This document shows, one piece after another, positions 4,974 to 51,972 of a stretch of 64,000 nucleotides of DNA. The DNA is from Actinomycetes bacterium (GTDB taxonomy: Bacteria > Actinomycetota > UBA4738 > HRBIN12): the NCBI GenBank assembly GCA_031423155.1, contig JANPEZ010000113.1:814-64813 (forward strand), in the 5' to 3' direction. The position numbers were made by a program, and so were the translations under genes. The stretch's first letter is position 1, and each line of letters starts with the position of its first letter. The notes under the pieces are model-generated. The model was not told the DNA's origin and ran no database searches. It saw only the letters and a program-made list of their open reading frames with translations.

Positions 4974-6652
4974 ATCTGGGCGACGTCTCACTCGGATGCG
5001 CATGGGCGCTCGTGGATCAACTCGCGCGCGAGGGGATGCGCCACTCCTGTCTCTCCCCGGGGTCGCGCTCGACCCCCTTGGCCCTAGCGCTGGAAAGGCA
5101 TCCCGGGATCCAGGTGCACGTTCACCTCGACGAGCGATCATCGGCGTTCTTCGCGCTGGGGATCGCTAAGGCGACCAGTGATCTCGTCGCCGTCGCTTGC
5201 ACGAGCGGAACCGCTGCCGCGGAGCTGTTCCCGGCCGTCGTGGAGGCATCCCAGTCGAGGGTTCCGCTGGTGCTGCTCACCGCCGATCGCCCGCCGCGGC
5301 TGCGGGGAACCGGCGCGAACCAGACCATCGATCAGGTCGAGCTGTTCGGCCGCTACGCCCGCTCCTACATCGAACCGGCGGTTCCGGCCGGCCCGGGGGA
5401 CGAAGAGGCATGGGCACTGGCGGGCGCCGATGCCGCCCGGAGCGCCCGGCTAGGCCCCGTGCCGGGTCCCGTTCATGTGAACTGCCCTTTCGAGGAGCCC
5501 CTCACTCCGAGTCCGGACGTAAGGCTGCCCGACCCAGGACCGGTTGAGCCCACGCGGCTTCCCGCTTCGCCCTCCACCTACGAGAACCTGAAGTTGATCG
5601 AGAGGCTGGCTGCCACTGAGCGAGGACTCTTCGTCGTCGGCGGACTCGCCCGGCCCGAGCCCGCGATCTTGGACCTGGCGGAGGCGATGGGCATCCCCGT
5701 CATCGCCGAACCGCACTCGGGCCTGCGTCTTCCCGGTAGAAGCCTTTCCGCGGGAACGGCGCTCGCGGTAGCGATGGGAGAGGGCCTCATCGGGCCGCCC
5801 GAGATCCTCGTCAGGTTCGGCGCCTATCCGACGTCCCGAGCCTTGCAGGCCCTGGACGCTGAGGCGACATATCTGGTGGTGGTCGGAGACGAGCACCTTG
5901 ATCCGGATCCGGAAGGCCGGGCCCACGAGCGCATCCTGCTCCCCGATCGATCGGTCGCCTCTGGACTCGGGCGCGCGGCCCCCGAGACGGGACGAGTACG
6001 TTGGACCGAAGGCGCGGACGCCGCCTCGCGCCGGGCGATAGACGAGCTGATCTCATCCTGGGATGAGCCTTTCGAGGGCCGGATCGCCCGCGATCTGGCG
6101 GCGGTGGTTCCCGAGGGAGCCTCGCTGATCGCCGGCTCGTCCATGCCCATCCGCGATCTGGATGGCTATATGGCGCCGCGGAGCGGGCTCTGCGTTCTGG
6201 CAAACCGAGGCGCGAGCGGCATCGACGGCTTCGTCTCGACGGCGCTCGGGGTGGCCGCGACCGGCGCACCGACGTATGCCCTTTCCGGCGACCTGACCTT
6301 CCTCTATGACATCGGGGCGCTGGTCTGGAACGCACGCCGCGGCCTGCACGCGACCTTCGTGGTCATCGATAACGGCGGCGGCGCCATCTTCGATTTCCTC
6401 CCGCAGAAAGCCCTCGCCGAACACGACCGCCTGTTCACGACGCCGCATGATCAGGACATCGGTGCCCTCTGCGCCGCGGCCGGGGCGGGACACGCCCGGG
6501 TTGAGCGCGCTGCCGATCTCACGACCGCGATCGAGGCGGTCGCCGGTTCGTCCGGCATACAGGTCGTCGAAGTGGCCTCCGACCGCCGGCTGAACGTCGA
6601 ACGCCACGAACAGGTGCGAACCGCCGTCGCGCGCGCCCTCTCGTCCGCGTAG
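4970..6652 (+). CDS. menD: SEPHCHC synthase (ThDP-dependent)
   Basis: SPGSRSTPL, DERSSAFFALG, CTSGTAAA, LTADRPP, NRGASGIDG, GDLTFLYD and NGGGAIF. ATG 4970 overlaps the menA TGA. Confidence 0.93.
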   Translation: MNLGDVSLGCAWALVDQLAREGMRHSCLSPGSRSTPLALALERHPGIQVHVHLDERSSAFFALGIAKATSDLVAVACTSGTAAAELFPAVVEASQSRVPLVLLTADRPPRLRGTGANQTIDQVELFGRYARSYIEPAVPAGPGDEEAWALAGADAARSARLGPVPGPVHVNCPFEEPLTPSPDVRLPDPGPVEPTRLPASPSTYENLKLIERLAATERGLFVVGGLARPEPAILDLAEAMGIPVIAEPHSGLRLPGRSLSAGTALAVAMGEGLIGPPEILVRFGAYPTSRALQALDAEATYLVVVGDEHLDPDPEGRAHERILLPDRSVASGLGRAAPETGRVRWTEGADAASRRAIDELISSWDEPFEGRIARDLAAVVPEGASLIAGSSMPIRDLDGYMAPRSGLCVLANRGASGIDGFVSTALGVAATGAPTYALSGDLTFLYDIGALVWNARRGLHATFVVIDNGGGAIFDFLPQKALAEHDRLFTTPHDQDIGALCAAAGAGHARVERAADLTTAIEAVAGSSGIQVVEVASDRRLNVERHEQVRTAVARALSSA

Positions 6653-6662
6653 GCTCGCCCGC

Positions 6663-7139
6663 GTGGAACCGAACATCGCCATGGCCACCCTTCATGACAT
6701 CCCGGAGCTGGCGCGCCTGCGGTGGCAGATGCACACGGAGGATCACCCGGATCCGGGTGAGACCTTCGACGGGTTCGCCGAGGGTTTCGCGGCTTTCGCC
6801 CGAGAGGCGCTCTCCGGCCAGATGTGGCACGTCTGGGTCGCCGAGGGATCGGGCCTTCTGGTCGGGAGCATCTGGCTGCAGCTCGTCGAGCGGGTCCCGC
6901 GCCCGGACCTGGGCTGGGGGCACAGACCTTTCGGCTATGTGACCAATGCTTATGTCGAGCCGCCGCACCGGGGCAAGGGACTGGGTTCACGGATGCTCGG
7001 CGAGATCGTGGCCTGGGGACGAGCGGCCGAGCTGAACTCGCTGATCGCCTGGCCGGACGATCGATCGACGAGCCTGTTCGCGCGCGCCGGGTTCACCCCA
7101 GACAGCGAGGCGCTGACCGTTCGCTTCGAGAACCCTTAG
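6663..7139 (+). CDS. GNAT family N-acetyltransferase
   Basis: Acetyl-CoA binding motif YVEPPHRGKGLG; TAGGCT 7 nt before the GTG suggests a leaderless start. Confidence 0.85.
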   Translation: MEPNIAMATLHDIPELARLRWQMHTEDHPDPGETFDGFAEGFAAFAREALSGQMWHVWVAEGSGLLVGSIWLQLVERVPRPDLGWGHRPFGYVTNAYVEPPHRGKGLGSRMLGEIVAWGRAAELNSLIAWPDDRSTSLFARAGFTPDSEALTVRFENP

Positions 7140-7154
7140 GAACCGCGCCGGCCA

Positions 7155-8333
7155 TCAGCCCCAGCGGAGGGGATCCAGGAAGGCCTTGAACTTGCGCTCG
7201 GTCTCTTCTGCTTCCTTCTGTGGTTCGGAGTCCGCGACTATCCCTGCCCCGGCGAAGAGCCGTGCGTGCGCGCCGAGCAGGAGCGCGCAGCGAAGGGCGA
7301 TCGCGAAGGTTCCGTCTCCTCGGGCGTCGACCCAGCCGACCGGACCGGCGTAACGGCCGCGGTCGAACGGCTCGAGTTCGCCTATAAGAGCCGCGGCTTC
7401 GGCCCTCGGAGTCCCACAAACGGCGGGCGTCGGATGAAGTGCGGAGACAACGTCCAGAACCCCTCCGACGCCGGGTCGAAGTCTGCCCTCGAACGGAGTG
7501 GACAGGTGCCAGACGTTGGCGGTGGCGAGCAGTTGAGGTTCGCCGGGAAAGGAGAGCTCCTCGCATAGGGGCGAGAGAGCTTCCTCGACCGCCTCGACCA
7601 CCAGATGATGCTCGTGCCGGTCTTTCTCGGAGGCGAACAGCTTTGACGCGGATGCGCGGTCCTGATCCGGGTTACCCCGCCGTGGCGCGGATCCCGCCAG
7701 TGGGTTGGCGCGAACCCGACGTCCCGAGGTACTCGCAAGAAGCTCAGGACTCGCGCCGACCAGAACCCCTTCGGATCCGGGCGCGGCGAACACGAAGCAG
7801 TCGGGGTCGACGGCTCTCAGTCGCCAGAGGAGCTGCTTCGGGTCCAGATCTCGCTCCGCCTGCACGTCGAGGGTCCGAGCCAACACGACCTTGCTCAGTT
7901 CGCCGGCGCGGATGTGATCGCGAGCTTCGGCCACCGCCGCCATGTAGGTTCCCGCATCCGGCCGAGGCGTCAGCTGCATCTCGTCGAATGCGGGCGCCGG
8001 CGCGATGGGAGCGAGCGGAAGCCGCCTCGGAGACGGCTCGAGGGCCGAGTACTCGCGAGCGCCGGTCTCGTCGCGGATGCAGTAGGTCGCAGGGAGGGTA
8101 AGTTCGGCCCCAGCCGCCACGTCGAATGGGAGGGAGCCGACGGCTACTGCCCCAGGGCCGATGCGCTGCAAGACTTCTCGGACCTCGCCACTGTTGGAGG
8201 CGCCGACACGGCCGGCGATCCCGCTCGCGGCGATGCCGAGTCCCGACCTTTCGAAGAAGAAGCCCTCGGGTCCGGGATAAGCCGCCAGCAGATCGAAGGC
8301 CGGAGCAAGCGCCCGCAGGACCGCCTCGCTCAC
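7155..8333 (-). CDS. menF: Isochorismate synthase
   Basis: KVVLAR, GASPELL, PLAGS, KDRHEH, HPTPAVCG, FDRGRYAGPVGW, AGAGIV..S and ETERK. Confidence 0.9.
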   Translation of the reverse strand: MSEAVLRALAPAFDLLAAYPGPEGFFFERSGLGIAASGIAGRVGASNSGEVREVLQRIGPGAVAVGSLPFDVAAGAELTLPATYCIRDETGAREYSALEPSPRRLPLAPIAPAPAFDEMQLTPRPDAGTYMAAVAEARDHIRAGELSKVVLARTLDVQAERDLDPKQLLWRLRAVDPDCFVFAAPGSEGVLVGASPELLASTSGRRVRANPLAGSAPRRGNPDQDRASASKLFASEKDRHEHHLVVEAVEEALSPLCEELSFPGEPQLLATANVWHLSTPFEGRLRPGVGGVLDVVSALHPTPAVCGTPRAEAAALIGELEPFDRGRYAGPVGWVDARGDGTFAIALRCALLLGAHARLFAGAGIVADSEPQKEAEETERKFKAFLDPLRWG

Positions 8334-38396: not shown

Positions 38397-41300
38397 CTAT
38401 CCGGCCAGAGCGCGGATCTGCCGCAGTGCCACCGTCAGCTGCGCGATGTCAGTAACGCCTTCCATCGCAAGGGTTCGCATGAACCTGTGGAGCCGGGCGA
38501 AGGGCTCGGCCCTGCTCTCCAGGAATGCAGCCACGGCTTCCTCGACGCTCGCACCTTCCGGTGCCTCTTCGATGACGCGCTCGGCTATCTGGCGGCGGAC
38601 CAGGAATACATCGTCCTCCATCGACTGAACGGCCCAGCGTTGCCAGCGAGAACCTGTGGGCAGTTCCTCAAGGCGGTATTCGAGCCAGTCGATGTCGAGC
38701 TTCTCGCCGAGCATGAAGAAGACCCTGGCCACGTCGAGGACCTCGTGTCCGCAGGCCCGGCTGACCGTGATGATGTCCGGGCCGTGGACCAGTTCGGCCT
38801 GGAAGGCGTGGCGGCGGGCGGTCTGCTCGGGCACTCCCTCGGCGACCAGGCGGCGAACGATGTGCTCGTGTTCCTCGCGCCAGGTGTCCGAGCCGACCCC
38901 GTCGATGACGGCGGACAGCTCGGCGAAGGAGGCGGCAGCACCCTCGATCGCCTCGGAGAGCCGGGCGCCACCACCCTGGACCAACCACCAGCGCGAGGTC
39001 GCCTCTACGAGCCAGTCGACGCCGCTCAGAAGCTCGTTCTGAACAACCGGGTCGATCAGGCCGTCGAGCGACTCGACCGAGGCCCAACGCTCGACCGCAC
39101 CGGTGACGTCACGCGCGATACGGAATGCGCGCACAACGTCGGCGGGCTGGGCGCCGGTTTCGGTAGCCATCCGCGTGATGAACGTGATCCCCTGCGAGTT
39201 GACTACATCGTTCGCGATGATCGTGGCGTTCAACTCTCTACGCAGGGGGTGTTCATTCAGCAGAGGCCCGAAACGCTCCACGACGGCGGGCGGGAAATAG
39301 CGCCGAAGGTCGGCCTCCAGGTAGGCCGAGTCGGGAAGGTCGCTGCGAAGGATCGCGGCGGCCAGGGATCGCTTGGCGTAGGCCAGCAGCACCGCGAGCT
39401 CGGGACGGGCCATCCCGGCACCGGCCGCCCGCCGCTCAGCCATCTCCTCGGTCGTGGGCAGGAACTCGACCTCTCGCTCCAGCTCTCCCTCGGACTCGAG
39501 CTGTTGCATCAGATCCTCGTAGGACTCGATGCGCTGGGTCGAGACTTCGGCTTCCTGGGAGAGGATCTGAGCCTGCAGGTAGTTCGTGTACAGCACATGC
39601 GCCGTTACGTCCTGTGCGCATGACTCGAGGAGCTCGTTGCGGGCCTCGACGGTCAGCTCTCCCCGCTGGACCGCGAGGCCGAGCAGGATCTTCAGGTTGA
39701 CTTCGTGGTCGGAGCAGTCGACGCCGGCGGAGTTGTCGATGAAGTCGGTGTTGATACGCCCGCCGGCCTGCGCGTACTCGACGCGGCCGCGCTGGGTGAA
39801 CCCGAGGTTGCCGCCTTCGCCCACGACCCGGCAGCGAAGGTCCTTGCCGCTTACCCGGATCGCGTCGTTCGCGCGGTCCCCTGCCTCTGCGTTGGCCTCC
39901 TTTGAGGACTTCACGTAGGTGCCGATGCCCCCGTTCCAGAAGAGATCGACGGGTGCCTTCAAGATCGCTTTCATCACTTCGGCGGGCGTCATCTCCTCGG
40001 GGGCATCCTCGGCGATGCCGATCACGGCCCGGGCCTCGAATGAGAGTGTCACCGACTTGGCCTTGCGGTCCAGCACCGCCCCCCCCTCGGAAAGGAGCGA
40101 AGTGTCGTAGTCGGCCCAGGAGGAACCGGGCGTGTCGAACAGCCTGCGGCGTTCTACGAACGAGGCGGCGGGATCGGGCGAGGGATCCAAGAAGATGTTG
40201 CGGTGATCGAAGGCGGCCACCAGCCTTATCTGCTCGGACAGCAGCATCCCGTTGCCGAAGACATCGCCGGACATGTCGCCGACCCCGATGACCGTGAAGG
40301 GATGAGTCATCACGTCGACACCTATCTCGCGGAAGTGGCGCTTGACCGACTCCCACGCGCCGCGCGCGGTTATGGCCAGCTTCTTGTGGTCGTAGCCGGC
40401 GCTGCCGCCGCTGGCGAACGCGTCTCCCAACCAGAAGCCGTACTCTGCGCTGACCCGGTTCGCGGTATCGGAGAAGGTCGCGGTCCCTTTGTCGGCAGCG
40501 ACCACCAGGTAGGGGTCGTCATCGTCCAGAACGCGAACGTCGGCGGGGTGAACCACGGAACCATCGACGAGGTTGTCGGTCAGATCGAGCAGCCCACGCA
40601 TGAAGGTCACGTACTGGGTACTGACCTCCCGCTTCAGCTCCTCGGGGGTCGCCGTCGCGCGCTTCAGGATGAACCCACCCTTCGACCCGTCGGGAACTAT
40701 GACCGCGTTCTTCACCTTCTGGGCCTTCATCAGGCCGAGGACCTCGGTGCGGTAGTCCTCCTTGCGATCGGACCAACGGATGCCACCACGAGCGACCTTG
40801 CCTCCGCGCAGGTGGATGGCTTCCATCTCCGGCGAGTAGACGAAGATCTCGTACAACGGGAAGGGCTTGGGCATCTCCGGAACGTCTGCGGATGCGATCT
40901 TGAACGACAGGGTGTTGCGCCCGGGCCGGTATGCGTTGGTCCGCAGCGTCGCGTCGATGGTCCCGAGGAAGCCCCTGATGATCCGGTCCTGATCGAGCGA
41001 GGCCACCGAGCGCAGATCACGCAGGATCTCTTTCCTCAGTTGGTCGACCTGTTCGTCCGGCGCAGCTCTTGCCGGGTCGAACTTAGCTTCGAAGAGCCGG
41101 ACGAGTCGCGCCGCGATGTGAGGGTTCTCGGCGAACGCGTCGTTCTGGTACTCCTCGGTGAAACTGGCCGACACGCGCTGGCGATACTTGCGGTAGGCCC
41201 GCAGGATGGCGACCTCCCGGTGGGTCAGCGAGGCGGAGATGACCAGCCTGTTGAGCGAGTCGGTCTCAGCCTCCCCCCGCCAGATCGCGCTGATGGTGTC

Positions 41301-43193
41301 CGATACTCGCTCGGCGCTGGCCTCGAGGTCGAGCACCGCGCCGCGGGCATCGAGGACCCCGAAGTCGTGGATGTAGACCTTGCCCTCGCCTTGCAGGGCG
41401 GTCGGAACCTCCTCGACGACTCGAAGACCCAGCGATTCGAGGATGGGCATGAAGTCCGACAGATCGATCTTGCCGCCGGTCTTGTAGAGAGAGGCGCGTG
41501 TGAGCCGCTCGCCGGCGGCCTCGTTGCCCAAGCCGACGACGAAGCCTTGATCGCTCGACTCGAGCTCCTCCAGCCGGGCGACATCGCCCGCGATCAGTTC
41601 CCAGTCCGCGTTGGACTTGTAGTACTCGGGGAATCGCGCCGACCACTTGCTGGCAAGACCCGCACCCTCCTGCCCGTGGTGCTTGATCAATACGTCGTTG
41701 AGATCGTCGTCCCAGGTGCGCGCCAGCCGCATGACCTCTTCTTCAAGCTCCTCGAACGGAACGTCCGGGATGTGGCCGTGATCGATGTGAACCGTGAAGA
41801 AGATGCGGGCCACCTCGGACTCGCCCAATGCCAGGTGATAGTCGACGGAGGACCCGTTGAAGCGATCGACGAAGAGTTTCTGAAGCTTCTTGCGCAGGGC
41901 CGCGTTGAACCGGTCGCGTGGAAGCGCGACGACCACCGAAACACTGCGCCCGTAGAGGTCGCGGCGGACGAGAACCCGGATCCCCTGCTGTTTCTCGAGC
42001 TGCAGCAGACCGCGAACCAGAACCCGAAGCTCCTCGGTCGAGGCAAGGAACAGTTCGTCCTTCGGAAATGACTCGAAGAGCGCAACGGCGGCCTTGTAAT
42101 CGTGCGAACCCTCGAAGAGGTCCTCGGCGGCCAGGATCTGCTCGAGCTTGTGGTGAAGAAGCGGCGTCTTGGAGGCCGGGTCCATGTAGGCCTTGGACGT
42201 GAATAGCCCGATCAGGCGAGCCTCTCCGATGATGGACCCGTCGGCTGCGATCTTGCGGATCCCGATGTAGTCCATCCGCGCGCGCCGGTGCACCGTGGAT
42301 TGCGAGTTGGTCTTGGAGTAGATGAGCAGGTCGCCGTCTTCGATGCGGGCGCGCAGCGCCGGATCAAGACCCGAAAGCTGCACCGGCGTGGCGAAGGAGG
42401 ACCGGCCGGCATCCGACAAGATCCCCAACCCGGTGTTGGGTACAGCTTGCAGCGCCCGGCCCTCGGCAGTATCGATCAAGTCGTATTCGCGATACCCGAG
42501 CAGCACGAAATTCAGCTGCGAGAGCCACTGCAGGAAATCGACGGTCTCGCCGACCTCACTAGGGTCGTATCGAACCGCGCCGACTCGGGCAAGCTCGATC
42601 ATGTGAACGACTCGCTCCTGCATCGCCTCGAAATCTCTGACGACGAGGCGCACGTCGCGAAGCACGTTCCGGATGCTCTCGGCGAGATCTGCCAACTCTT
42701 CGTCCGAGAGGCGCCGATCCACCTCGATGTGCATCACGGATTCCCGGTGCAAGGCCTCACGGGCGTGAAGGACGCGCTCGATGTGGCCGCCCTCACCCCT
42801 GGCGGTGCCGATGACGGGGTGAAGCAGACGGCGGACGTTCAGGTTGCGAGCAGCCAGCTCCTCGGTTACGGAATCGACGAGGAACGGCGCGTCGTCGGTG
42901 TTCGTTTCCAGCACCGACCCGACGGTTCCGTATCCATCTGTCGCGATATCCGGGTTGAAGGCTCGGACGGCGCTCGGGTCATCTCCTCTGGAATCCGCCA
43001 GTTCGAAGGCGCCCATGACCTGGGCGAAGAGCTCCTCCAAGGGGACGCCGGAGGTCTCCTCTTCGGAGAGACGGCGGGTGTATGCCTTGGAGAAGGCGGA
43101 GATGGCGTCGCGGCGCTCGGGAGCGGCACGCTCGGAGATCAGGACGAGCAACTCCTCGATAGCGGACGCCGGGGTCTGGGTCTGCGGGTCCAC
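38397..43193 (-). CDS. gdhB: Large NAD-specific glutamate dehydrogenase
   Basis: DDAPFLVDSV, ARGGIRWSDR.EDYRTEVLGLMKAQKVKNAVIVP.GSKGGF, DPYLVVAADKGTATFSD, GDMSGDVFGNGML and NTDFIDNSAGVDCSDHEVN. Start placed at GTG 43193. Confidence 0.96.
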   Translation of the reverse strand: MDPQTQTPASAIEELLVLISERAAPERRDAISAFSKAYTRRLSEEETSGVPLEELFAQVMGAFELADSRGDDPSAVRAFNPDIATDGYGTVGSVLETNTDDAPFLVDSVTEELAARNLNVRRLLHPVIGTARGEGGHIERVLHAREALHRESVMHIEVDRRLSDEELADLAESIRNVLRDVRLVVRDFEAMQERVVHMIELARVGAVRYDPSEVGETVDFLQWLSQLNFVLLGYREYDLIDTAEGRALQAVPNTGLGILSDAGRSSFATPVQLSGLDPALRARIEDGDLLIYSKTNSQSTVHRRARMDYIGIRKIAADGSIIGEARLIGLFTSKAYMDPASKTPLLHHKLEQILAAEDLFEGSHDYKAAVALFESFPKDELFLASTEELRVLVRGLLQLEKQQGIRVLVRRDLYGRSVSVVVALPRDRFNAALRKKLQKLFVDRFNGSSVDYHLALGESEVARIFFTVHIDHGHIPDVPFEELEEEVMRLARTWDDDLNDVLIKHHGQEGAGLASKWSARFPEYYKSNADWELIAGDVARLEELESSDQGFVVGLGNEAAGERLTRASLYKTGGKIDLSDFMPILESLGLRVVEEVPTALQGEGKVYIHDFGVLDARGAVLDLEASAERVSDTISAIWRGEAETDSLNRLVISASLTHREVAILRAYRKYRQRVSASFTEEYQNDAFAENPHIAARLVRLFEAKFDPARAAPDEQVDQLRKEILRDLRSVASLDQDRIIRGFLGTIDATLRTNAYRPGRNTLSFKIASADVPEMPKPFPLYEIFVYSPEMEAIHLRGGKVARGGIRWSDRKEDYRTEVLGLMKAQKVKNAVIVPDGSKGGFILKRATATPEELKREVSTQYVTFMRGLLDLTDNLVDGSVVHPADVRVLDDDDPYLVVAADKGTATFSDTANRVSAEYGFWLGDAFASGGSAGYDHKKLAITARGAWESVKRHFREIGVDVMTHPFTVIGVGDMSGDVFGNGMLLSEQIRLVAAFDHRNIFLDPSPDPAASFVERRRLFDTPGSSWADYDTSLLSEGGAVLDRKAKSVTLSFEARAVIGIAEDAPEEMTPAEVMKAILKAPVDLFWNGGIGTYVKSSKEANAEAGDRANDAIRVSGKDLRCRVVGEGGNLGFTQRGRVEYAQAGGRINTDFIDNSAGVDCSDHEVNLKILLGLAVQRGELTVEARNELLESCAQDVTAHVLYTNYLQAQILSQEAEVSTQRIESYEDLMQQLESEGELEREVEFLPTTEEMAERRAAGAGMARPELAVLLAYAKRSLAAAILRSDLPDSAYLEADLRRYFPPAVVERFGPLLNEHPLRRELNATIIANDVVNSQGITFITRMATETGAQPADVVRAFRIARDVTGAVERWASVESLDGLIDPVVQNELLSGVDWLVEATSRWWLVQGGGARLSEAIEGAAASFAELSAVIDGVGSDTWREEHEHIVRRLVAEGVPEQTARRHAFQAELVHGPDIITVSRACGHEVLDVARVFFMLGEKLDIDWLEYRLEELPTGSRWQRWAVQSMEDDVFLVRRQIAERVIEEAPEGASVEEAVAAFLESRAEPFARLHRFMRTLAMEGVTDIAQLTVALRQIRALAG

Positions 43194-43279
43194 GAGGGAA
43201 CATTCTCGCAGGTCCGGATGGGCGTCGGCGTGGTGTGGACAGGTGAAGTGGGCGGCCGGTCTTACGCCTGGACGGCGCA

Positions 43280-44182
43280 CTATCGCGCCGCGTAGTCGGG
43301 GTAGTTGGCTTCCACGATCGGAATGAGGCCAGTCAGGTAGGCACCCCCCGTGCAGCCTCGGCACCACGCGCTCGCGTTGATCCACCTCGCGGTCGCGGCC
43401 GCCGGCGAGCATCCGCGAAGGGAGGACAGGATGGACTCGTACCCGTAGGAAGCTGCCCCCCCGGTCAGGGTCTCGACCGACGCCCGGACGCCCTGTTGCA
43501 CGGACATGTAGTTCTTGACCCCGACCGAGTTGAAGTTGGTCGCACCGGCCATGGAGTGCGTCGTCGCCAAGGGATTGAACCGGGCAGCCGTCGACTCCTG
43601 CGTCTGCCATGCGACGACAACGAGCAGGTTGTCGCCGCAGTCGGGTGCGCCGATGGCGGCAAGGAAGAGGCGCGCCCAACCCTCGTAGGTCCGTGAGACC
43701 GCGCCGGTTCCATCGCTAAGCCGGTCGACCAGCGCTTGAAGGTCATCCCTCTTCGACTGCATGTCGACCAGACGATCCTGGAAGCCTTGCACGCTCCGGG
43801 AAGTCGACGCGAAGGCCTCGCTCCGCTTCAGGCGGTGGTAGCGCAGGAGTGCCCGGTTGAGCTCGACCAGTTCCAGGGGCGGGGACATCATGCTCACGCG
43901 TAACGCCTCGGGGTTGGGGATCAGAACGCCGGCCTCACGCGCACTTGCGCGGGCGAAGTACAGGTGCCGCTCGGCCAGCAGGGCCCTGCCCTGCGATAGG
44001 TTCAAGTCGCCGATGCCCGCTCCCATCCGGGCTTGCACGGCGGCGATCCTGTGGTCGAGGTCGGCGAGCGCGACCCGAGCCGACGACAGGGTTGCCGGGA
44101 CCTGGGCGCGCGCGGGCAGCCCCCCGACGAGCGAAGAGACGGCGAGCAGCGCTGCTGCGAACCTGGATACGAGCCGGACCAC
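43280..44182 (-). CDS. Secreted coiled-coil protein with a C-terminal putative lysozyme-like cell-wall hydrolase domain
   Basis: Signal peptide (PARA|Q), heptad-rich middle, C-terminal WQTQES..ARFNPLATT...NFNSVGVKNY. Hydrolase function is inferred. Confidence 0.6.
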   Translation of the reverse strand: MVRLVSRFAAALLAVSSLVGGLPARAQVPATLSSARVALADLDHRIAAVQARMGAGIGDLNLSQGRALLAERHLYFARASAREAGVLIPNPEALRVSMMSPPLELVELNRALLRYHRLKRSEAFASTSRSVQGFQDRLVDMQSKRDDLQALVDRLSDGTGAVSRTYEGWARLFLAAIGAPDCGDNLLVVVAWQTQESTAARFNPLATTHSMAGATNFNSVGVKNYMSVQQGVRASVETLTGGAASYGYESILSSLRGCSPAAATARWINASAWCRGCTGGAYLTGLIPIVEANYPDYAAR

Positions 44183-44221: not shown

Positions 44222-46069
44222 CTAGGAGGACCGGCGCGCCGCCTCGACGACCTCGGCGGCCAGGTCGAAACGGCCGAACTGAGGCATCAGGTAGATGCCC
44301 TGGACCTGGGAACGTAGCTCCTCTATCAGTTCGGTGGCCATCGCTATCCCGGTCTTGCCCGAGTCATCGCCTGCCGCGGCCAGCCGCTCTCGGGCCTCGT
44401 CCGGGATCAAGATCCCGGGCACCTCGTTGTGCAGGAACTCGGCGTGACGACCGGTGACCAGGGGCAGCACCCCGGCGAGCACGGGCACGGTGAGCTCGCC
44501 GAACTCCCGCTCGTAGGCATCGCGTAGGAGCGAGATCGGTTCGACGGAATACACCGGCTGAGACAGCAGGAACCGAGCCCCGCTATCCACCTTCTTGCGC
44601 AGCAGTCGAACCTCCCTGACCAGGTCGCCCGCCACGGGAGAGACCGCCGCGCCTGCGAAGAAGGATGTCGGCTCGCCGATGGAGGCGCCGGAACGATCGA
44701 GTCCCCGGTTGAACTCCTCGTTTATCAGGGAAAGAAGGCCGGTGGCGGTCACGTCGACGTTGTTGGACCCCTGGGGGAAGTCACCGATCGTCACGGGATC
44801 GCCGACGCAGACGAAGATGTTGCGGATCCCGAGCGCATGCGCACCAAGAAGATCGCCCTGCAAACGCAGGAGATTCCTGCCGCGGGTCGGGAAGTGAAGC
44901 GTCGTCTCGGCCCCGGCCTGATCCTGGATGGCCCTGCACGCGGCCCAGGCACTCATCCTCATCTTGGCCATCGGGCTGTCGGCGACGTCTACAACATCGG
45001 CGCCGGCGGAGGTGAGGGTTTCGGCCGCCGCTACCAGGCGGGACACATCGAAGGATCGCGGGGGTTCCATCTCTACGGCGATAACGAATGCTCCACGTGA
45101 GAGCTTCTCCTGCAGTCCCGTGGGAACTACCGAAACCCCGGTAACCGCGGAAGAGGGTTCCACGTACTCTGCGACATCGACGAGCGCACGACCGGGTGCA
45201 CGTTCAATGGCCGCCGCGACCGCCGATGTGTGGGCGGGTCCGGTTCCGCAGCATCCTCCGATCAGCGCGACTCCTTCGTCAAGCATCGCTCGAGCATGGT
45301 CGGCGAAGTATCCGGGGGTCGCGGGATAGACGAAGCGCCCACCGACCTGTCGCGGCCCCCCGGCATTCGCGCGGGCGAGCATCGGCAGGCCGGCCGCGAC
45401 CGGGGCCATGGCTCGAACGACCCTAAGGGCTTGGGCGGGTCCCTCCCCGCAGTTCACGCCGATCGCGTCGGCCCCCAACTCTGCCAGCCGGGCCGCCACC
45501 TGCGCTGGCGTCGAACCGAGCAGCGTCCGGTCGTCGCGGGTGAAGGTCGAGCTTGCGAGCACCGCGAGCCCGGGAGCTGCTTCATGGGACGCGGCCAGCG
45601 CCTGTTCCATCTCTCGCAGGTCGGTCTGTGTCTCGATGATCAGCACGTCGACCCCGGCTTCCGCCAGTGCCTCGATGGCCTCGGAGTAGGCATCGAAGGC
45701 GGCCTCGGCCGAGACCCTTCCGTAGGGGGCGAGCCTCACGCCCAAGGGACCGACGGATCCGGCAACGTACTCGGCGCCCGACCCCCGGGCGATCTCGACG
45801 CCGGCACGGACCAATGGGCCAACGGAACCCGATAACCCGTGCCGTTCGAGCCGGAATCTGTTCGCGCCGAACGTATTCGTCAGGACCAGCCTGGCCCCGG
45901 CCTCGACGAACCCCCGATGAACATCTCCGACGGCGACAGGATCCTGCAGGTTCAACGCCTCGAAGCAAGAGTCGATCGGCCTGCCGCCTTCGATCAGAGA
46001 CGTGCCCATCCCCCCGTCGGCCAGGAGGGGCCCAGTCGCCAGCACTGCGCGGAGCTCGACGCCGTTCAT
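44222..46069 (-). CDS. yitJ: Bifunctional homocysteine S-methyltransferase / methylenetetrahydrofolate reductase
   Basis: DGGMGT, TNTFGAN, GVNC, GGCCGTGP.H; second domain VEMEPP, DSPMAKMRMS, TRGRNL..LQGDLLGAHALG, GD, KKVDSGA.F..SQP and GIYLMP. Confidence 0.93.
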   Translation of the reverse strand: MNGVELRAVLATGPLLADGGMGTSLIEGGRPIDSCFEALNLQDPVAVGDVHRGFVEAGARLVLTNTFGANRFRLERHGLSGSVGPLVRAGVEIARGSGAEYVAGSVGPLGVRLAPYGRVSAEAAFDAYSEAIEALAEAGVDVLIIETQTDLREMEQALAASHEAAPGLAVLASSTFTRDDRTLLGSTPAQVAARLAELGADAIGVNCGEGPAQALRVVRAMAPVAAGLPMLARANAGGPRQVGGRFVYPATPGYFADHARAMLDEGVALIGGCCGTGPAHTSAVAAAIERAPGRALVDVAEYVEPSSAVTGVSVVPTGLQEKLSRGAFVIAVEMEPPRSFDVSRLVAAAETLTSAGADVVDVADSPMAKMRMSAWAACRAIQDQAGAETTLHFPTRGRNLLRLQGDLLGAHALGIRNIFVCVGDPVTIGDFPQGSNNVDVTATGLLSLINEEFNRGLDRSGASIGEPTSFFAGAAVSPVAGDLVREVRLLRKKVDSGARFLLSQPVYSVEPISLLRDAYEREFGELTVPVLAGVLPLVTGRHAEFLHNEVPGILIPDEARERLAAAGDDSGKTGIAMATELIEELRSQVQGIYLMPQFGRFDLAAEVVEAARRSS

Positions 46070-46171
46070 GACGGGAGTTTCCCAGGCTCGGAGCCGGCCC
46101 CGGCCGGTTGCTCGACGGGGCGACCTCCGGTGGCTAGGATGAGCCGCTCCAAGCGGGAGGGGCGGACGCTA

Positions 46172-46975
46172 GTGGATCGAAGGTTGCATCTGTGCGTCGC
46201 GGCGCTGCTCCTCGCGCTGTCCGCCTGCAGGTTCTCCACTTCAGATCCCGGGTCTACGCAGAGCCCCAGTCCGACCCCGACGGAGCGACCCGCCGTCGCC
46301 GGACTCAAGGCGGCGCCCAAGCCTTTCAAGGCCGACCCATCGTCGTGGCGGATGACGCTCACTTGGACGGCCCCCGTCGGCTTCGAGGCGGACCACTACG
46401 TTATAACGCGCGACACACGCTCGATCGCGAAGGACGTTATGGGTACAACCTTCGTGGACGAGGGGATCGAGCCAGACGAGAAGTACCGCTATTCCGTGAC
46501 CGGCGTCTCCGCGGACGGGGCGCAGACCAAGCCGGCGATCACGGTAGTGACGACCGATCCCCTGCCGGACTCCGACGCGAGGCTGCAGGGCAAGTTCCTG
46601 ATGAAGATGCATACGACCTCGAGCAACGTAGGCGCGTCCGGCAACTTCGGGATGCTCTGGACGTTCGACCCCAAGTGCGCTTCCGGTCCGTGCGAAGTGA
46701 CTTGGAGCGCGAAGGGACGCAGCGGCTCCGGGGTTCTCAAGCAGAAGGGGGCAACCTACTCGGGCACCATCTATGCGCCGTTCATGATCTTGAGCTGCCA
46801 CGGTGGCTCCTTCAACGAGGCCTTGACGTTCACGTTCCATATCACGGAGTCATCGACCGTCGGAGGCCAGTGGAGGGCGACCAGGTTCCAGGGGTCGATG
46901 TTCGAGAGTGCGAGCTATTCGGGCTGCGTAACGGGTCGGAACTCCTATACATATGCGGGGCAAGTGCAGTCATGA
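46172..46975 (+). CDS. Lipoprotein with Fn3-like domain and Cys-paired C-terminal beta domain
   Basis: Lipobox LSA|C; Fn3-like LTW...YVITRD...FVD.G......YRYSVT; WTFDPKCASGPC. Confidence 0.7.
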   Translation: MDRRLHLCVAALLLALSACRFSTSDPGSTQSPSPTPTERPAVAGLKAAPKPFKADPSSWRMTLTWTAPVGFEADHYVITRDTRSIAKDVMGTTFVDEGIEPDEKYRYSVTGVSADGAQTKPAITVVTTDPLPDSDARLQGKFLMKMHTTSSNVGASGNFGMLWTFDPKCASGPCEVTWSAKGRSGSGVLKQKGATYSGTIYAPFMILSCHGGSFNEALTFTFHITESSTVGGQWRATRFQGSMFESASYSGCVTGRNSYTYAGQVQS

Positions 46976-48021
46976 CGGATCCGCAGGAGCCGAACGAACC
47001 GCAGATGGGGCCCCCGGAGGGTCAGGATTCGGCGTCACCGCCACCTCCGCCGATCCCCGTGGTGACTCCCGTCCCCTCGGACTTCCTGACTCCAACGGTT
47101 CCGTTCGAGACGATCGAGCCGGAGCCATCCCAGGGTGTTGCCGGCTCACCTATTCCCTCCACGGCTCCAGGCAGTATGCCGGCGCCCTCTCGCCTCAGAC
47201 GCGGCGCCGCGATAGGACTGGCGATACTGCTCGCGATCGGAGGCGTCACCGCCGCCATCTTGGCGTCCGGAGGAAAGGCGCTGGTCGCCCCGTCGGGTCC
47301 TCCCGACGCACCCACGGACGTTACGGCGAAGGCCCGGGCGTGCGCGCCACCAAAGTGCGACACCGTTCACGGCGAGGTTGAGGTGGCGTGGTCGGCATCC
47401 GGCGGCGACCCGACCAAGTACACGATCTCGCGCGACGGTTTCCAGGTAGGAACGACCGAGGGCGACCAGACCGGCTTCATCGACGAAGACGCGGGCCTCG
47501 GCGAGAAAGTGTCCTACACGGTTACGGCCACGAACGCGGAAGGCACCTCATCCGAGTCGGCTGCCGGAACCGTCAAGATCCCTGTCCCTCCGCTCACCGC
47601 CGCGCAGCTTTCGGGAACCTACCGCGTCGTCGAGACGGTAACGCGCGCAACGTTCCTGGGTCGGTTCGAGGGCATCGACTCCCCCACGCCGGGCGACACG
47701 ACGACGAGCACCTGGACGTTCTCACCCACCTGCCACTCCAACGAGGGGGCGTGCCCTACGAAGATCTTCGGCGACAACCCGCCGTTGAAGCCGAAGGGCA
47801 GGGTCTACACCGGATCCCCCAACCAGGAGAAGGCTAGGTGCAACAGCGGCTCGGCGGTGCCGACCGACAACGACTACCGGTTGGTGATAACGAAAGCCAA
47901 GGTCACGTCCACATGGACGGTGTCGGCTTTCACCGGGACCTACTCGGTCTCATTCACGTGCAGCGGAGGATTCACCTCGAGCGGAACCGTCAAGGTAACC
48001 GGCACCTACAAGGGGAGCTAG
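46972..48021 (+). CDS. Pro-rich, single-TM protein with Fn3-like domain and paralogous C-terminal domain
   Basis: Pro-rich N-terminus, TM IGLAILLAIGGVTAAILA, Fn3-like PDAPTDV...VAW...YTISRDG...FIDE...YTVTA, and WTFSPTC....GAC. ATG overlaps the previous TGA. Confidence 0.7.
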   Translation: MTDPQEPNEPQMGPPEGQDSASPPPPPIPVVTPVPSDFLTPTVPFETIEPEPSQGVAGSPIPSTAPGSMPAPSRLRRGAAIGLAILLAIGGVTAAILASGGKALVAPSGPPDAPTDVTAKARACAPPKCDTVHGEVEVAWSASGGDPTKYTISRDGFQVGTTEGDQTGFIDEDAGLGEKVSYTVTATNAEGTSSESAAGTVKIPVPPLTAAQLSGTYRVVETVTRATFLGRFEGIDSPTPGDTTTSTWTFSPTCHSNEGACPTKIFGDNPPLKPKGRVYTGSPNQEKARCNSGSAVPTDNDYRLVITKAKVTSTWTVSAFTGTYSVSFTCSGGFTSSGTVKVTGTYKGS

Positions 48022-48425
48022 CCGGCCACTATCTCCAAGCTGTGAGATAGCTCGACGTTCGGCCGGAGCGTCGCAGCGACCGAACAGTATCTGGACTCGG
48101 ACAGTTCGATCGCCCGCTCGGCCTTCGCCGGATCGACGTCTCCCGTGATGATGAAGTGCAGGTGGATCCCGGTGAACGCCCAAGGGGCTTCGGGCTCTTG
48201 CTCGGACGTGATCTTGACTTCTAGGCCCTCCAGAGCCTGCCGCTGTTTCCGCAGGATGTTCACCACATCCCAGGACGTACACGCGGCGAGCGAGATGGGG
48301 ACCAGGTCGGAGGGTTTGGCGCCCACCCCTTGCGGATCGGTGTCGATCCCGAAGACATGACCCTGCTGGTCTCTGCCTTCGAAACCGAATCCCTCTCCCG
48401 TCCAGCGCAGGCCCTGCTCACTCAT
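48018..48425 (-). CDS. OsmC family protein
   Basis: KPSDL...SLAACT and AIELSESRYCSV (two conserved Cys). Confidence 0.88.
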   Translation of the reverse strand: MSEQGLRWTGEGFGFEGRDQQGHVFGIDTDPQGVGAKPSDLVPISLAACTSWDVVNILRKQRQALEGLEVKITSEQEPEAPWAFTGIHLHFIITGDVDPAKAERAIELSESRYCSVAATLRPNVELSHSLEIVAG

Positions 48426-48463
48426 GGGGGCAGTCTATGGTTCCGGGCGGTTACCCTCCTCTC

Positions 48464-49309
48464 GTGAGCATCCAGAACGCCACCGGCCGCCTGCGCAGCG
48501 TTCACGTCCGTCCGCCCGTGGAGTCAGATCTGTCGAACTGGGCCGCGTACTCGTGGCGGCGCGCGCCGGATCCGGGGCGCGCGGCCGACGAGCACTCCGC
48601 CTTCAGGGAGGAACTCGCTGCCGAAGGGGCCAGCGTGCTCCTCGGCGCAACTGCGGTGTCCGCCGACCCTGACGCCATGTACGCCTACGACCCAACCCTT
48701 CCCACCGACGAGGGACTGATCCTCCTGCGTCCGGGCAAGGAGGGCCGACGCTCGGAACCAGCGGCGCTCGCAACCGACCTTGAGGCCGCCGGCTGCACGG
48801 TCCTCGGCCGGCTGGAGGAGCCGGCCACGGCCGAGGGCGGCGACATGTTCTTCCTCGATGACCGGACATTGCTCGTGGGCCGTGGCTACAGGACCAACGA
48901 CGCGGGTATCGCGCAGATCGCCGCCCTGCTACCCGGTGTCGATGTGCTCGCATTCGACCTGCCTCATCTCCGCGGACCCGGCGAGTGCCTACATCTGATG
49001 TCTTTCATCTCGCCCCTGGATGTGGACCTGGCGGTCGTGTATCTGCCCATGATGCCGGTGCGCCTTGTGCAGATGCTCCGCGATCGGGGCATCGCGATGG
49101 TCGAGGTTCCGGACGAGGAGTTCGCATCCATGGGCCCGAACGTTCTTGCTCTCGGACCTCGCGTCGCGCTGGCGCTGGAGGGTAACCCCGAAACCCGGCG
49201 AAGGATGGAGGCCGCAGGCGTCGACGTCCGGACCTACAAGGGGGAAGAGATCTCGCGGATAGGCGAGGGCGGACCCACGTGCCTCACACGGCCGCTCGAG
49301 CGCGACTGA
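48464..49309 (+). CDS. Amidinotransferase superfamily protein (dimethylargininase/arginine deiminase-like)
   Basis: YAYD, EGGD, GRGYRTN, LHLMS and C-terminal GGPTCLTRPL (catalytic Cys). Confidence 0.9.
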   Translation: MSIQNATGRLRSVHVRPPVESDLSNWAAYSWRRAPDPGRAADEHSAFREELAAEGASVLLGATAVSADPDAMYAYDPTLPTDEGLILLRPGKEGRRSEPAALATDLEAAGCTVLGRLEEPATAEGGDMFFLDDRTLLVGRGYRTNDAGIAQIAALLPGVDVLAFDLPHLRGPGECLHLMSFISPLDVDLAVVYLPMMPVRLVQMLRDRGIAMVEVPDEEFASMGPNVLALGPRVALALEGNPETRRRMEAAGVDVRTYKGEEISRIGEGGPTCLTRPLERD

Positions 49310-49328
49310 CGCGGTATCGTTTGCGGCC

Positions 49329-49799
49329 ATGCGATTCCAGCTCTGGCTGAGCGTCCACATGCTCGGCGTATTCGGGTTCGTCGGGACCCACGGGGTCTCG
49401 ATGTTCGTCCTCTGGCAAGTGCGCAAGGAGAGGGACCGGGCCAAGCTGGCCGAGCTGATCAGCCTCTCAGGCCAGACGGCCCTGCCGATGTACGTATCGC
49501 TCGCTGTGCTGCTCGTCGGCGGCATCGGCGCCGGTACGACGTTCGGACTCTTCACCGACTGGTGGATGACGACAGCCCTGCTCATCTTGATCGTGGAGAT
49601 CGGACTTATGTCGGCGATAGCCAAGCCCTATTTCAGAAGGATCACCGAAGCGACGGCGTTGCGCCCCTCGGGCGTTCCCCGCGTCTCCGATGAGGAACTG
49701 GAGAGCCTGCTCACCTCCGGCGAGCCGATGATCATCACGTTGACGGGCGCAGCGGGCCTGTTGATCATCCTCTGGCTGATGATCTTCAAGCCCTTCTAG
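49329..49799 (+). CDS. DUF2269-like four-TM membrane protein
   Basis: LSVHMLG..GF, four hydrophobic helices and C-terminal LMIFKPF. Confidence 0.7.
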
Positions 49800-50797
49800 G
49801 CGGGAGGAAGTGGCCTGGTTGCCGGGCCGTTGACGACCTCTCCGGTGGGTGTATATCGCGAACCATGGCAGGGGCAGTCCCACGCGCTCTCGGCCTCGTT
49901 CCACCCGACGGTGCATCCCATGTGGGTGCACTTGGCCGACATCACGTGAAGCCCTCCGCCATCGTCCATGAATGCGGCGAGCTTCTCCCCTTGCTGGACG
50001 ATGATCCCCCCCTGGCCGGGCCGCAGCTCTGAAACCGCCTGGGTGACCGTGCGGCAGATCAGCACGTCGCCGGTCGCGTACTCGCTGACCTTGGCGGGGA
50101 CGGAACCGAGCAGGAAGCGCTTGGCTCCGGTCATCCCCTTGTTGCCGACGATGATCAGATCGGCCCCGCACCCCTCGGCCGATTCCAGGATCTGCTCGGC
50201 GGGATCGCCCTCGAGTATCGAGACATCGGTAGGTGTGTCACCGGCGTAGACCGCGATCGTGTCCGCAGTGATGAGCTCTCCGGTCTTGGGATGGCCAACG
50301 AAGACCAGCGTCACCGACGCGCCGAGTGACTCGGCCAGATCGAAGCCCTTTCGCGCGGCCCTGTCGGCCGTTGGAGACCCGTCCGTAGCGATCACGACCT
50401 TGCCGTAGACGGATCCGCCCCGCTCCTTCGGACCCGAGACGATCAGGATGTCGCAAGGTGCGTGGTGGGAGAGCTTGTGGGCAACCTGACCAAGCAGGAA
50501 CTCGTGACCACGCCCTCCCGAGATGACCAGGAGTCCCGCATCCTTCTCCTCGGCCAGATCGGCGAGTGCCTCCGCGGCTATGCCTTCACGCAGCTCCACG
50601 GAGAGCTTCTTGACGCCCGCTTCCTCGGCCGGAGCCACGGCCGTTCGAAGGATCTCCTCGGCGCCGGAGCGCTGCTCGAAGACATGCGCGACGATCAGTT
50701 CGGCTCTGCCGGCCTTGGCGAGAGCGATGGCCACTGCCCCCGCATGAGCCGAAGCCTCAGAGCCATCGGTACCGAGCAGGATCCGTTTATAGGCCAT
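49796..50797 (-). CDS. Tandem universal stress protein fused to a C-terminal Rieske [2Fe-2S] domain
   Basis: [11 protein letters not shown] and [14 protein letters not shown] starts; [15 protein letters not shown]; Rieske boxes CTHMGC and [10 protein letters not shown]. Confidence 0.9.
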
Positions 50798-50871
50798 CTT
50801 CTAAGTACCTCCGGGGTCGGCCGAACGCTAGCAGAAGGTCCGTCGAGGAAGCCATCGGTACCATGGGTTGC

Positions 50872-51972
50872 ATGATGACCCGCGCCTTCAACTTCTCGGC
50901 AGGTCCAGCGGTCCTTCCCGAAAGGGTCCTACTCGAGGCTCAGGCCACCTTGCTGGCGCTGCCGGCCTCGGGGTTCTCGCCGCTGGAGATGTCTCACAGA
51001 TCCCCCTGGTTCGAGGAAGTCATCGCGGAAGCCGAGGCCAACCTTCGGGGTCTGCTGACGATCCCGGCGAACTACAGGGTGCTCTTCCTACAGGGTGGGG
51101 CGAGCCTTCAGTTCTCCATGGTTCCTATGAACCTGCTGCGGGGCAGCGGCTCTCGAGCCGAGTACGTCGTCACGGGTTCGTGGGGCACCAGGGCGGTGAA
51201 GGAGGCGGCCATCGAGGGAGAGGTCGTAACGATCTGGACCGGGGAGGCATCCGGCTTCGACCGGACGCCGAGCCCTTCCGAGCTTTCCCCTTCTGGGGAC
51301 GCGGCCTACCTGCACTTCACTTCCAACGAAACCATCCAGGGCGTGGAGTTCCCGCCATCGGTTCAACCGGAGCCGGACGGCCAGGTGCCCCTGGTGTGCG
51401 ACGCGTCCTCGGATCTGCTATCGCGGCCCGTAGAGATCGGGCGCTACGGGTTGGTCTACGCGGGCGCGCAGAAGAACGCGGGTTCGGCAGGACTGACCAT
51501 CGTCATCATCCGAGAAGACCTGCTCGAGCGCGCTCCCGATGACCTGCCCACCATGCTCGCCTACCGCACGCACGCCGATGCCGGTTCGCTGTACAACACT
51601 CCGCCGGTCTTCTCGGTCTACATCCTTATGCTCGTGACACGCTGGCTCCGCGACGACATCGGCGGCCTGGAGAAGATGGCGGCGCTCAACGAGGAGTAGG
51701 ATGCACTGGTCTACCAGCAGATCGACGGATCGGCCGGCTACTACCGAGGTCACGCCGAGCCGGACTCACGCAGTCGCATGAACGTCACGTGGCGACTGCA
51801 GAACGAGGAGCTGGAACGCCGGTTCATCTCCGAGGCCGCCGAAGCCGGGCTCATCGAGCTGAAGGGCCACCGTTCGGTCGGCGGCATCCGCGCCTCGATC
51901 TACAACGCCATGCCGCGCGAAGGCGTCGAGGCCTTGGCCGAGTTCATGAGCGACTTCGCATCCAAGAGCTAG
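50872..51972 (+). pseudogene. serC: Phosphoserine aminotransferase interrupted by an in-frame TAG at 51697-51699
   Basis: FNFSAGPAVLP, LQGGASLQF, SNETIQG, YAGAQKNAG and YNTPP. After the TAG the same frame continues DALVYQQID...SRMNV...LKGHRSVGGIRASIYNAMP. Confidence 0.85.

Follow-up and report, generated by a model that had tools for sequence, protein, structure and literature searches.

A USP-USP-Rieske fusion protein paired with a DUF2269-related membrane protein: a candidate two-gene redox system of uncultured Actinomycetota

Introduction

What is the role of a protein in which two universal stress protein (USP) domains are joined, in one reading frame, to a Rieske [2Fe-2S] domain? The question is raised by a 64,000-nucleotide stretch of DNA from Actinomycetes bacterium (GenBank assembly GCA_031423155.1, contig JANPEZ010000113.1, positions 814 to 64,813 of the forward strand; hereafter, the window), with a G+C content of ~65% throughout, which encodes such a USP-USP-Rieske fusion. 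Universal stress proteins are ubiquitous, and their biochemical role is largely unknown. An earlier note, made from the letters of this DNA, had proposed a redox-gated USP in which the oxidation state of the cluster is coupled to ATP binding or to interaction with a partner. As a free-standing protein, such a USP is not supported as stated; the comparative evidence points to an electron-transfer subunit that works with a dedicated membrane protein. We consider the chances about even that the fusion serves, on the cytoplasmic side, as the electron-transfer subunit of a two-gene redox system of uncultured Actinomycetota that is modular and spans the membrane.

Results

Architecture and spread of the fusion protein

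The open reading frame (ORF) of the fusion gene is uninterrupted and begins with an ATG, preceded by a GGAGG ~10 nt upstream. In the Pfam search, two Usp domains (E 4.2e-43) and one Rieske domain (E 2.6e-12; aa 253-331, profile positions 6-85 of 88) were recognized in this single intact frame, as the earlier note had read it. The AlphaFold2 (AF2) model, based on a 59-sequence alignment (pLDDT 87.4, pTM 0.76), is of low confidence in the USP2 nucleotide loop (aa 223-230) and in the linkers. In Foldseek searches, residues 1-250 resembled tandem USPs, namely TTHA0350 with ATP (3ab8, E 1.9e-15) and Rv2623 (3cis), while for residues 256-330 the matches were the soluble Rieske domain of Chlorobaculum (8hn2_A; 77 columns at an rmsd of 1.9 A) and PetC of b6f complexes. 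Assignment to the USP family PF00582 is carried by the fold (Pfam, AF2, and Foldseek with 3ab8/3cis) and by the nucleotide motif of USP2, USP1 having lost it; for the Rieske family PF00355, both ligand loops and the beta-sandwich fold are present, and the C-terminal strands of solved domains are absent. Moreover, no hydrophobic segment, signal peptide or membrane anchor was found in the fusion protein, whose first USP strand begins at residue 4, and the protein is therefore predicted to be cytoplasmic.

Among 59 homologues, the Rieske ligands C290, H292, C308 and H311 are invariant, and so are C295 and C310; the two boxes thereby contain all four ligands of the cluster, as well as the cysteine pair that is disulfide-bonded in bc1/b6f Rieske proteins. 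In USP1, alignment against long-form and co-directional relatives, which retain G-x2-G-x9-G-S at this position, revealed an 11-residue sequence with a loop four residues too short and without the G-S/T, whereas the corresponding 15-residue sequence of USP2 is an intact G-x2-G-x9-G-S; both calls of the earlier note on these motifs were right. The best single-domain PDB sequence matches of USP2 are the nucleotide-binding USPs 5ahw, 1tq8 and 1wjg. The USP pair is similar to ATP-binding and to cAMP-binding USPs; a cAMP-specific binding by USP2 was considered and set aside, since ligand specificity cannot be deduced from such likeness. Family-specific blocks are invariant as well (TADRAARK and FVGHPxTG; those listed under USP2 are a 14-residue block and FVGHPxTG), and the linker residues R249, T250 and Q253 are invariant or almost so.

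The protein ends three residues past GPATRPL, and the ~20 last residues of solved soluble Rieske domains are missing; in the PDB sequence match (E 2e-15), residues 15-88 of the 110 of 8hn2_A align with residues 256-330 of the query. The short end (...RPLPPA) is common to every homologue, and the YhfW-like and reductase-fused relatives stop equally early, which denotes a family trait rather than a truncation. Outside the USP fusions, the most similar Rieske domains (45-57% identity) form two groups, one of them C-terminal in DAO-type FAD oxidoreductases of ~500-570 aa, with the YhfW architecture, and the other made up of stand-alone proteins of 94-140 aa; both groups end equally early. The YhfW likeness proposed from the first reading was thus borne out at the level of the module. 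An N-terminal DAO/FAD domain of the YhfW type is absent, residues 1-250 being USP only and the DAO-bearing relatives being separate proteins; judged from its sequence, the fusion protein lies outside the YhfW family, its resemblance being limited to the Rieske module. With PetC/QcrA the fusion shares the disulfide cysteines, and it lacks their anchor or Tat signal, their cytochrome b partner and their scores: no NCBIfam model exceeded its cut-off against the fusion protein, the best being PetC (66 bits vs 250) and QcrA (32 vs 275), and no cytochrome b gene was found near the fusion gene in the flanking loci checked.

The concern that two genes were joined by a lost stop or a frameshift, which would make the fusion an assembly artefact or a pseudogene, found no support and has a negligible probability. 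A 7,289-nt Logan contig from a freshwater-sediment metagenome encodes an identical protein and equals positions 44417-51705 of the window, bar two bases at its far end; furthermore, contigs of three independent runs cross the USP2/Rieske junction (a 13-residue segment; nt 50027-50071) with zero differences. The best-scoring 120 clusters (90% identity) are 59-73% identical to the query and 329-356 aa long, all with both Pfam domains, and nearly all of them span the whole query; the near-invariant linker residues mentioned above likewise speak against an artefact. Cluster counts are lower bounds, of at least 120 for USP-USP-Rieske and at least 120 for the reductase-fused form described below; at 50% clustering, 58 representatives had E <= 1e-30, roughly 15-20 of them of full length. 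The fusion is conserved in hundreds of uncultured Actinomycetota, and the outcome that would have spoken for an error, a fusion unique to this assembly with a damaged junction, did not materialize. The only nearby anomaly is a stop codon in serC, outside the fusion gene.

Within the gene, a +1/-1 indel pair spaced by 6 nt (49881 and 49887) was seen in contigs of related strains in two runs; it falls inside the Rieske domain between the Cys boxes and amounts to a compensated local frame change of two codons in a variable stretch. Apparent USP plus Rieske matches outside Actinomycetota (Desulfobacterales, Deferribacteres, Chlorobiales and Acidobacteriota) were rejected; they are partial, and belong to common bc/b6f Rieske subunits with a membrane anchor, the alignments of which were spuriously extended.

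A dedicated membrane partner

Immediately next to the fusion gene, on the opposite strand, lies a gene for a four-helix membrane protein, and the TAG stops of the two genes overlap in a palindromic CTAG (49796-49799). The flanks of 43 full-length fusion loci from species-representative genomes were compared with targeted tblastn searches and with genes called beforehand, while a de novo clustering of flank ORFs was discarded, being confounded by antisense ORFs in this high-GC DNA. A partner homologue was detectable in 41 of the 43 loci, and within ~90 nt in 39 of them, either convergent (34) or directly upstream on the same strand (5), the same-strand partners being 33-38% identical to that of the window; a contig edge ends one further locus. 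The reciprocal search, started from the partner, yielded 253 relatives in species-representative genomes, and in 79 of the 80 loci listed, nearly all of them from Actinomycetota metagenome-assembled genomes (MAGs), a convergent fusion gene adjoins the partner. The pairing outlasts a change in the order of the genes; this speaks for a functional coupling, and against synteny that was merely inherited. That both the fusion and its pairing with this partner are real we regard as firmly established.

This evidence also bears on a more modest explanation, in which the fusion is a soluble Rieske ferredoxin serving a cytoplasmic oxidoreductase, by analogy with YhfW, and the adjacent membrane gene is a meaningless relic of synteny. 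The closest Rieske modules do sit on soluble DAO-type FAD oxidoreductases or stand alone in 94-140 aa, and most pairs are convergent, hence not operonic. Nevertheless, adjacency persists down to ~33-38% partner identity and through the switch to a tight co-directional operon, whereas serC, the DDAH-like gene and MTHFR are lost beyond the closest ~10 loci, so that we hold this explanation to be very unlikely.

Two loci (L024 and L036; CALGFI010000029.1 and CALGFI010000121.1) belong to one MAG, which carries two USP-USP-Rieske copies on different contigs, one of them with the membrane gene upstream on the same strand; paralogous pairs can thus coexist in a single genome.

Regarding the partner itself, 30 of the 43 family members match DUF2269 (PF10027) over its full length, with a best E of 3e-8. 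The window partner also matches at full length, with 19.4 bits, below the Pfam cut-off of 28, while the partners at loci L088 and L089 reach 39-40 bits. AlphaFold2 models it with high confidence (pLDDT 93.6) as four long transmembrane helices plus a short loop helix. In the short-form alignment H10 and H21 of helix 1, M94 of helix 3 and M151 of helix 4 are invariant, as is a 12-residue loop motif, and the four His/Met residues are kept in all seven short- and long-form partners compared; the window therefore holds both members of the module, the fusion gene and an adjacent four-helix H10/H21/M94/M151 gene. By their depth in the helices, H10 and M151 fall in the outer leaflet and H21 and M94 in the inner one, which makes H10/M151 and H21/M94 candidates for two His/Met cofactor sites. 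With the K/R-rich loops (28-46 and 99-133) inside, the predicted topology places both termini outside. A HemJ relationship was not adopted, being based on a single weak match without membership, and stays a hint. In the literature, no function was found for DUF2269, which is mentioned solely as an unknown domain.

Extended sister forms

Several relatives carry further domains on one or both members of the pair. In at least 120 clusters the fusion continues through a linker into Pyr_redox_2, Pyr_redox and Reductase_C domains (~770-785 aa; hereafter, the reductase or long form). The best matches of the reductase part are putidaredoxin reductase, TodA and BphA4 (E 4e-74 to 1e-52), enzymes that reduce small ferredoxins, Rieske ferredoxins included, and the covalent union of reductase and Rieske implies that electrons pass from NAD(P)H via FAD to the Rieske domain. 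In four of four reductase-form loci (L042, L085, L086 and L087), a gene for DUF2269 with a C-terminal cupredoxin lies 0-7 nt upstream on the same strand; in this cupredoxin all ligands of a type-1 copper site are present (H...C-x2-H-x2-M), and its closest matches are plastocyanin and amicyanin. At L088, two CDGSH domains and a 4Fe-4S domain precede USP-USP-Rieske, and the convergent partner joins DUF2269 to a cytochrome c domain with CAECH, whereas at L089 a plain DUF2269 gene stands directly upstream of a USP-USP-Rieske-Rieske gene. Both the cupredoxin and the cytochrome c are attached after the last helix of the membrane protein. In the long forms and in the co-directional short forms the ATP motif is intact in both USPs; in the clade of the window that of USP1 has been lost. 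Database names of these proteins are automatic ("universal stress protein", "FAD-dependent oxidoreductase", "dioxygenase ferredoxin reductase component").

A constant core is therefore recognized, USP-USP-Rieske plus the four-helix protein, and whatever is added to it in the variants is a redox module, either one-electron or NAD(P)H-linked. With redox-only additions, inputs on the cytoplasmic protein and classic extracytoplasmic carriers on the predicted outer end of the membrane protein, an electron path across the membrane is the simplest reading.

Two other explanations have to be weighed against these architectures. In the first, the fusion is a redox-sensing USP, whose Rieske cluster senses redox state, O2 or NO, alters nucleotide binding or oligomerisation of the USPs and signals to the membrane partner or to other targets. 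The short form of the window has neither a reductase nor an outer redox domain, and all its cluster ligands are strongly conserved nonetheless; in addition, a degenerate USP1 beside an invariant USP2 and invariant family surface blocks is what would be expected of a regulatory interface, and USPs are generally regulatory nucleotide binders, as illustrated by Rv1636, which binds cAMP (PMC11107214). On the other hand, the repeated fusions to ferredoxin reductase, CDGSH, 4Fe-4S and a second Rieske domain, together with cupredoxin and cytochrome c partners, are more simply explained by a wire, and no output domain or regulator was found conserved near the fusion loci. A sensory role is thus a serious rival for the short form, which lacks both terminal redox modules, although we judge it clearly the less probable answer.

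In the second, DUF2269 would be a small transporter or channel, e.g., for copper or another metal, with USP-USP-Rieske as its regulatory subunit, as TeaD is for TeaABC. His and Met residues conserved inside membrane helices would also suit Cu(I) sites, and the fold matches include single USPs, such as TeaD (3hgm), and USP-like domains that form part of transporters, as in the NCC/KCC co-transporter entries. Nevertheless, the domain fused to the partner is an electron-transfer cupredoxin (Cys/His/His/Met) or a cytochrome c and not a CopC-type metal-binding domain, and it is hard to see what the reductase and Fe-S fusions would contribute to the gating of a transporter; we find this account improbable.

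Some neighbours of the extended forms were also recorded. At L089, an NDH-2-type NADH dehydrogenase (Pyr_redox_2 plus NDH2_C; 6415-7653, minus strand) is convergent with the double-Rieske gene and could be a separate electron donor in that genome. A gene for a small cNMP-binding protein, with a weak Cupin_2 match, directly follows the long-form operon at L085 (8419-8844) and L087 (8336-8812), that is, in two of the three long-form operons for which called genes were listed; upstream at L085 there are a Guanylate_cyc fragment and a HisKA_3 kinase with response regulators. Such gene content hints at cyclic-nucleotide control of the long-form system.

Feature coordinates and neighbouring genes

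The features of the two-gene module and its surroundings are given in Table 1. The spacer between the fusion gene and serC presumably holds both divergent promoters; neither an Rfam match nor a promoter-like or terminator-like site was found in it, and the two promoter-like sites detected both lie within genes.

Table 1. Positions, in window coordinates, of the fusion gene, its domains and motifs, its partner and other genes mentioned in the text.
Feature	Position	Strand	Remarks
USP-USP-Rieske gene	49796..50797	-	333 aa; TAG stop at 49796-49798
USP domain 1, aa 1-121	50435..50797	-	Pfam Usp; confident AF2 fold
USP1 degenerate nucleotide loop (12 residues)	50483-50518	-	
USP domain 2, aa 131-250	50048..50407	-	Intact G-x2-G-x9-G-S; Pfam Usp, motif, fold
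USP2 motif (16 residues)	50099-50146	-	
Short b6f/YhfW-type Rieske [2Fe-2S] domain, aa 253-333	49799..50041	-	Pfam, PDB, Foldseek
Rieske box 1, CTHMGC, aa 290-295	49913-49930	-	
Rieske box 2, CPCHGS, aa 308-313	49859-49876	-	
Divergent 65-nt spacer, fusion gene / serC	50798..50862	none	
Partner gene, four-helix membrane protein (divergent DUF2269)	49329..49799	+	156 aa; convergent with fusion gene
Very long ORF	38397..43679	-	1,760 aa; coding-like GC3
Homocysteine S-methyltransferase-MTHFR fusion	44222..46069	-	615 aa
OsmC-like peroxiredoxin	48018..48425	-	
Amidinotransferase/DDAH-like (ADI superfamily)	48437..49309	+	
serC	50863..51972	+	In-frame TAG at 51697-51699

Other genes were considered as partners and rejected (serC, the DDAH/amidinotransferase-like gene, OsmC, the MTHFR fusion and glutamate dehydrogenase), since they are conserved only in the closest ~10 loci and reflect local synteny. 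The OsmC-like and DDAH-like genes lie just beyond the partner, an arrangement confined to the closest ~10 genomes. The S-methyltransferase-MTHFR gene is syntenic with the USP-Rieske pair in several related genomes, where it often adjoins a large NAD-specific glutamate dehydrogenase gene.

As for serC, the Logan contig has AAG (Lys), the residue also present in homologues, where the window has the in-frame TAG, and at 51701 it reads C for A; the contigs of two runs break at 51700-51731. The stop is most likely an assembly or strain artefact and not the mark of a pseudogene. Further on, contig depth at 51848-51938 rises to ~700-1350x in all four metagenome runs, against ~10x elsewhere; this segment codes for the strongly conserved motif at the C-terminus of SerC, and contigs of many other organisms map to it.

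Discussion

How the system may work

Full-text literature searches retrieved no paper on a USP-Rieske protein, nor on a USP combined with a cupredoxin and a ferredoxin reductase, and no characterised protein with this architecture turned up, in line with the impression on first reading. The two-gene redox module is thus undescribed, although built of known kinds of domain, and the window holds its short form.

In the mechanism that we favour, the Rieske cluster would carry single electrons and would dock to the membrane protein at its cytoplasmic loops. The membrane protein would bind one or more redox cofactors, with one His/Met site per leaflet, haem b being the most likely and copper an alternative, and would act as an electron relay linking the cytoplasm with the outer face. 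In the long forms, NAD(P)H would pass electrons to FAD, from where they would reach the Rieske cluster, then the membrane protein, and finally blue copper or haem c. The USP pair would serve as a dimerising scaffold, in which USP2 might be a sensor of adenine nucleotides (ATP, possibly cAMP) that tunes docking or electron flow to the energy state of the cell. The window would represent a stripped-down short form; as it has neither reductase nor outer domain, its electron donor and final acceptor would have to be separate proteins.

Several points weigh against this electron-transfer reading. The short form lacks both terminal modules, so that through-transfer is extrapolated from sister clades, and no stand-alone homologue of the reductase or of the outer redox domain was found in the 64-kb window. 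Most short-form pairs are convergent and hence not co-transcribed, and a search for RNA runs that would report on expression found none. Disulfide cysteines of the bc1/b6f type are unusual in a cytoplasmic domain. On the membrane side, the fold of the partner had no significant match in the PDB (best E 0.37), the hits being limited to four-helix bundles of a generic or designed kind and to cytochrome bd subunit II, and its sole link to a haem protein is one weak UPF0093/HemJ match of one member (E 1e-3). The last G-S of the USP2 motif is replaced in some homologues by SS, NP or AS, so that nucleotide binding by USP2 may not be universal in the family, and the apparent co-variation of the 12-residue partner loop with the degenerate USP1 concerns two clades only. 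We regard actual electron transfer across the membrane, as well as nucleotide gating, as possible in the short form, with the balance somewhat against both.

Significance

In these proteins two USP domains come permanently linked to a redox cluster and to one particular membrane protein, which offers a testable idea, namely that nucleotide state is coupled to electron transfer. The pairing also provides a first functional context for DUF2269, and the set of modular architectures reads like a complete trans-membrane electron path. At least ~250 species-level genomes carry the system, all of soil and sediment Actinomycetota without cultured representatives; in these abundant bacteria it may be a significant way, so far overlooked, of delivering electrons outside the cytoplasm or of sensing redox state. 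A more general version, which we put forward tentatively and with less than even confidence, is that DUF2269 proteins form an unrecognised class of small four-helix electron wires across the membrane, each leaflet holding one haem or copper site with His/Met ligands, for which USP-USP-Rieske would be the nucleotide-gated delivery subunit on the cytoplasmic side; with interchangeable inner and outer modules they would make up a new modular system of Actinomycetota that leads electrons from NAD(P)H to the cell exterior. Should this be true, DUF2269 gains a function, and a mechanistic role can be named for a USP domain.

Comparison with known systems

The two-USP fold of the fusion is common to Rv2623 of M. 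tuberculosis (3cis/2jax) and TTHA0350 of T. thermophilus (3ab8), with E 1.9e-15 to 1e-13 and TM scores of 0.7-0.85 on the target. Those proteins, however, lack a Rieske domain or any other redox domain, and no membrane protein is dedicated to them as a neighbour; the fusion of the window, in turn, has lost the USP1 motif, and the TADRAARK and FVGHPxTG blocks are invariant in its family. Bacillus subtilis YhfW, the function of which is uncharacterised (PMC7317962), resembles the fusion in its Rieske module, through the CTHxGC and CPCHGS boxes and the early C-terminal end, but it has a DAO/FAD domain in place of the two USP domains. The b6f/bc1 PetC proteins (8hn2, 9rk3, 5cxm) are the best sequence and fold matches of aa 256-330, sharing both boxes, the disulfide cysteines and the Ser of CPCHGS; in contrast to them, the fusion lacks the last beta-strands, the N-terminal anchor, the Tat signal and a cytochrome b neighbour, and it is predicted to be cytoplasmic.

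On the side of the long forms, there is a parallel with the electron-transfer chains of Rieske oxygenases, in which a ferredoxin reductase (BphA4/TodA) works with a Rieske ferredoxin (BphA3/TodB), since the same reductase class (E 1e-52 to 1e-59) is covalently joined to a Rieske domain. Unlike these chains, the long forms have no oxygenase component and do have USPs and a membrane partner, and the sequence of their Rieske domain, in which the disulfide cysteines are present, is of the bc1/b6f and not of the ferredoxin type. For the partner, HemJ/UPF0093 protoporphyrinogen oxidase shows a distant similarity to DUF2269, through the one weak match mentioned above; HemJ is a dimeric membrane haem-b protein (PMC13564367).

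The proposed logic, as distinct from the sequences, is like that of the NOX/FRE/STEAP proteins, of MsrQ-MsrP and of cytochrome b561. These systems combine a cytoplasmic NAD(P)H or flavin input with a small helical membrane protein that has His-ligated cofactors and an extracytoplasmic one-electron acceptor. There is no relation to them in sequence or fold; the partner has four helices with His/Met candidates instead of six-helix domains with bis-His di-haem ligation, and a Rieske cluster and a pair of USPs are interposed here.

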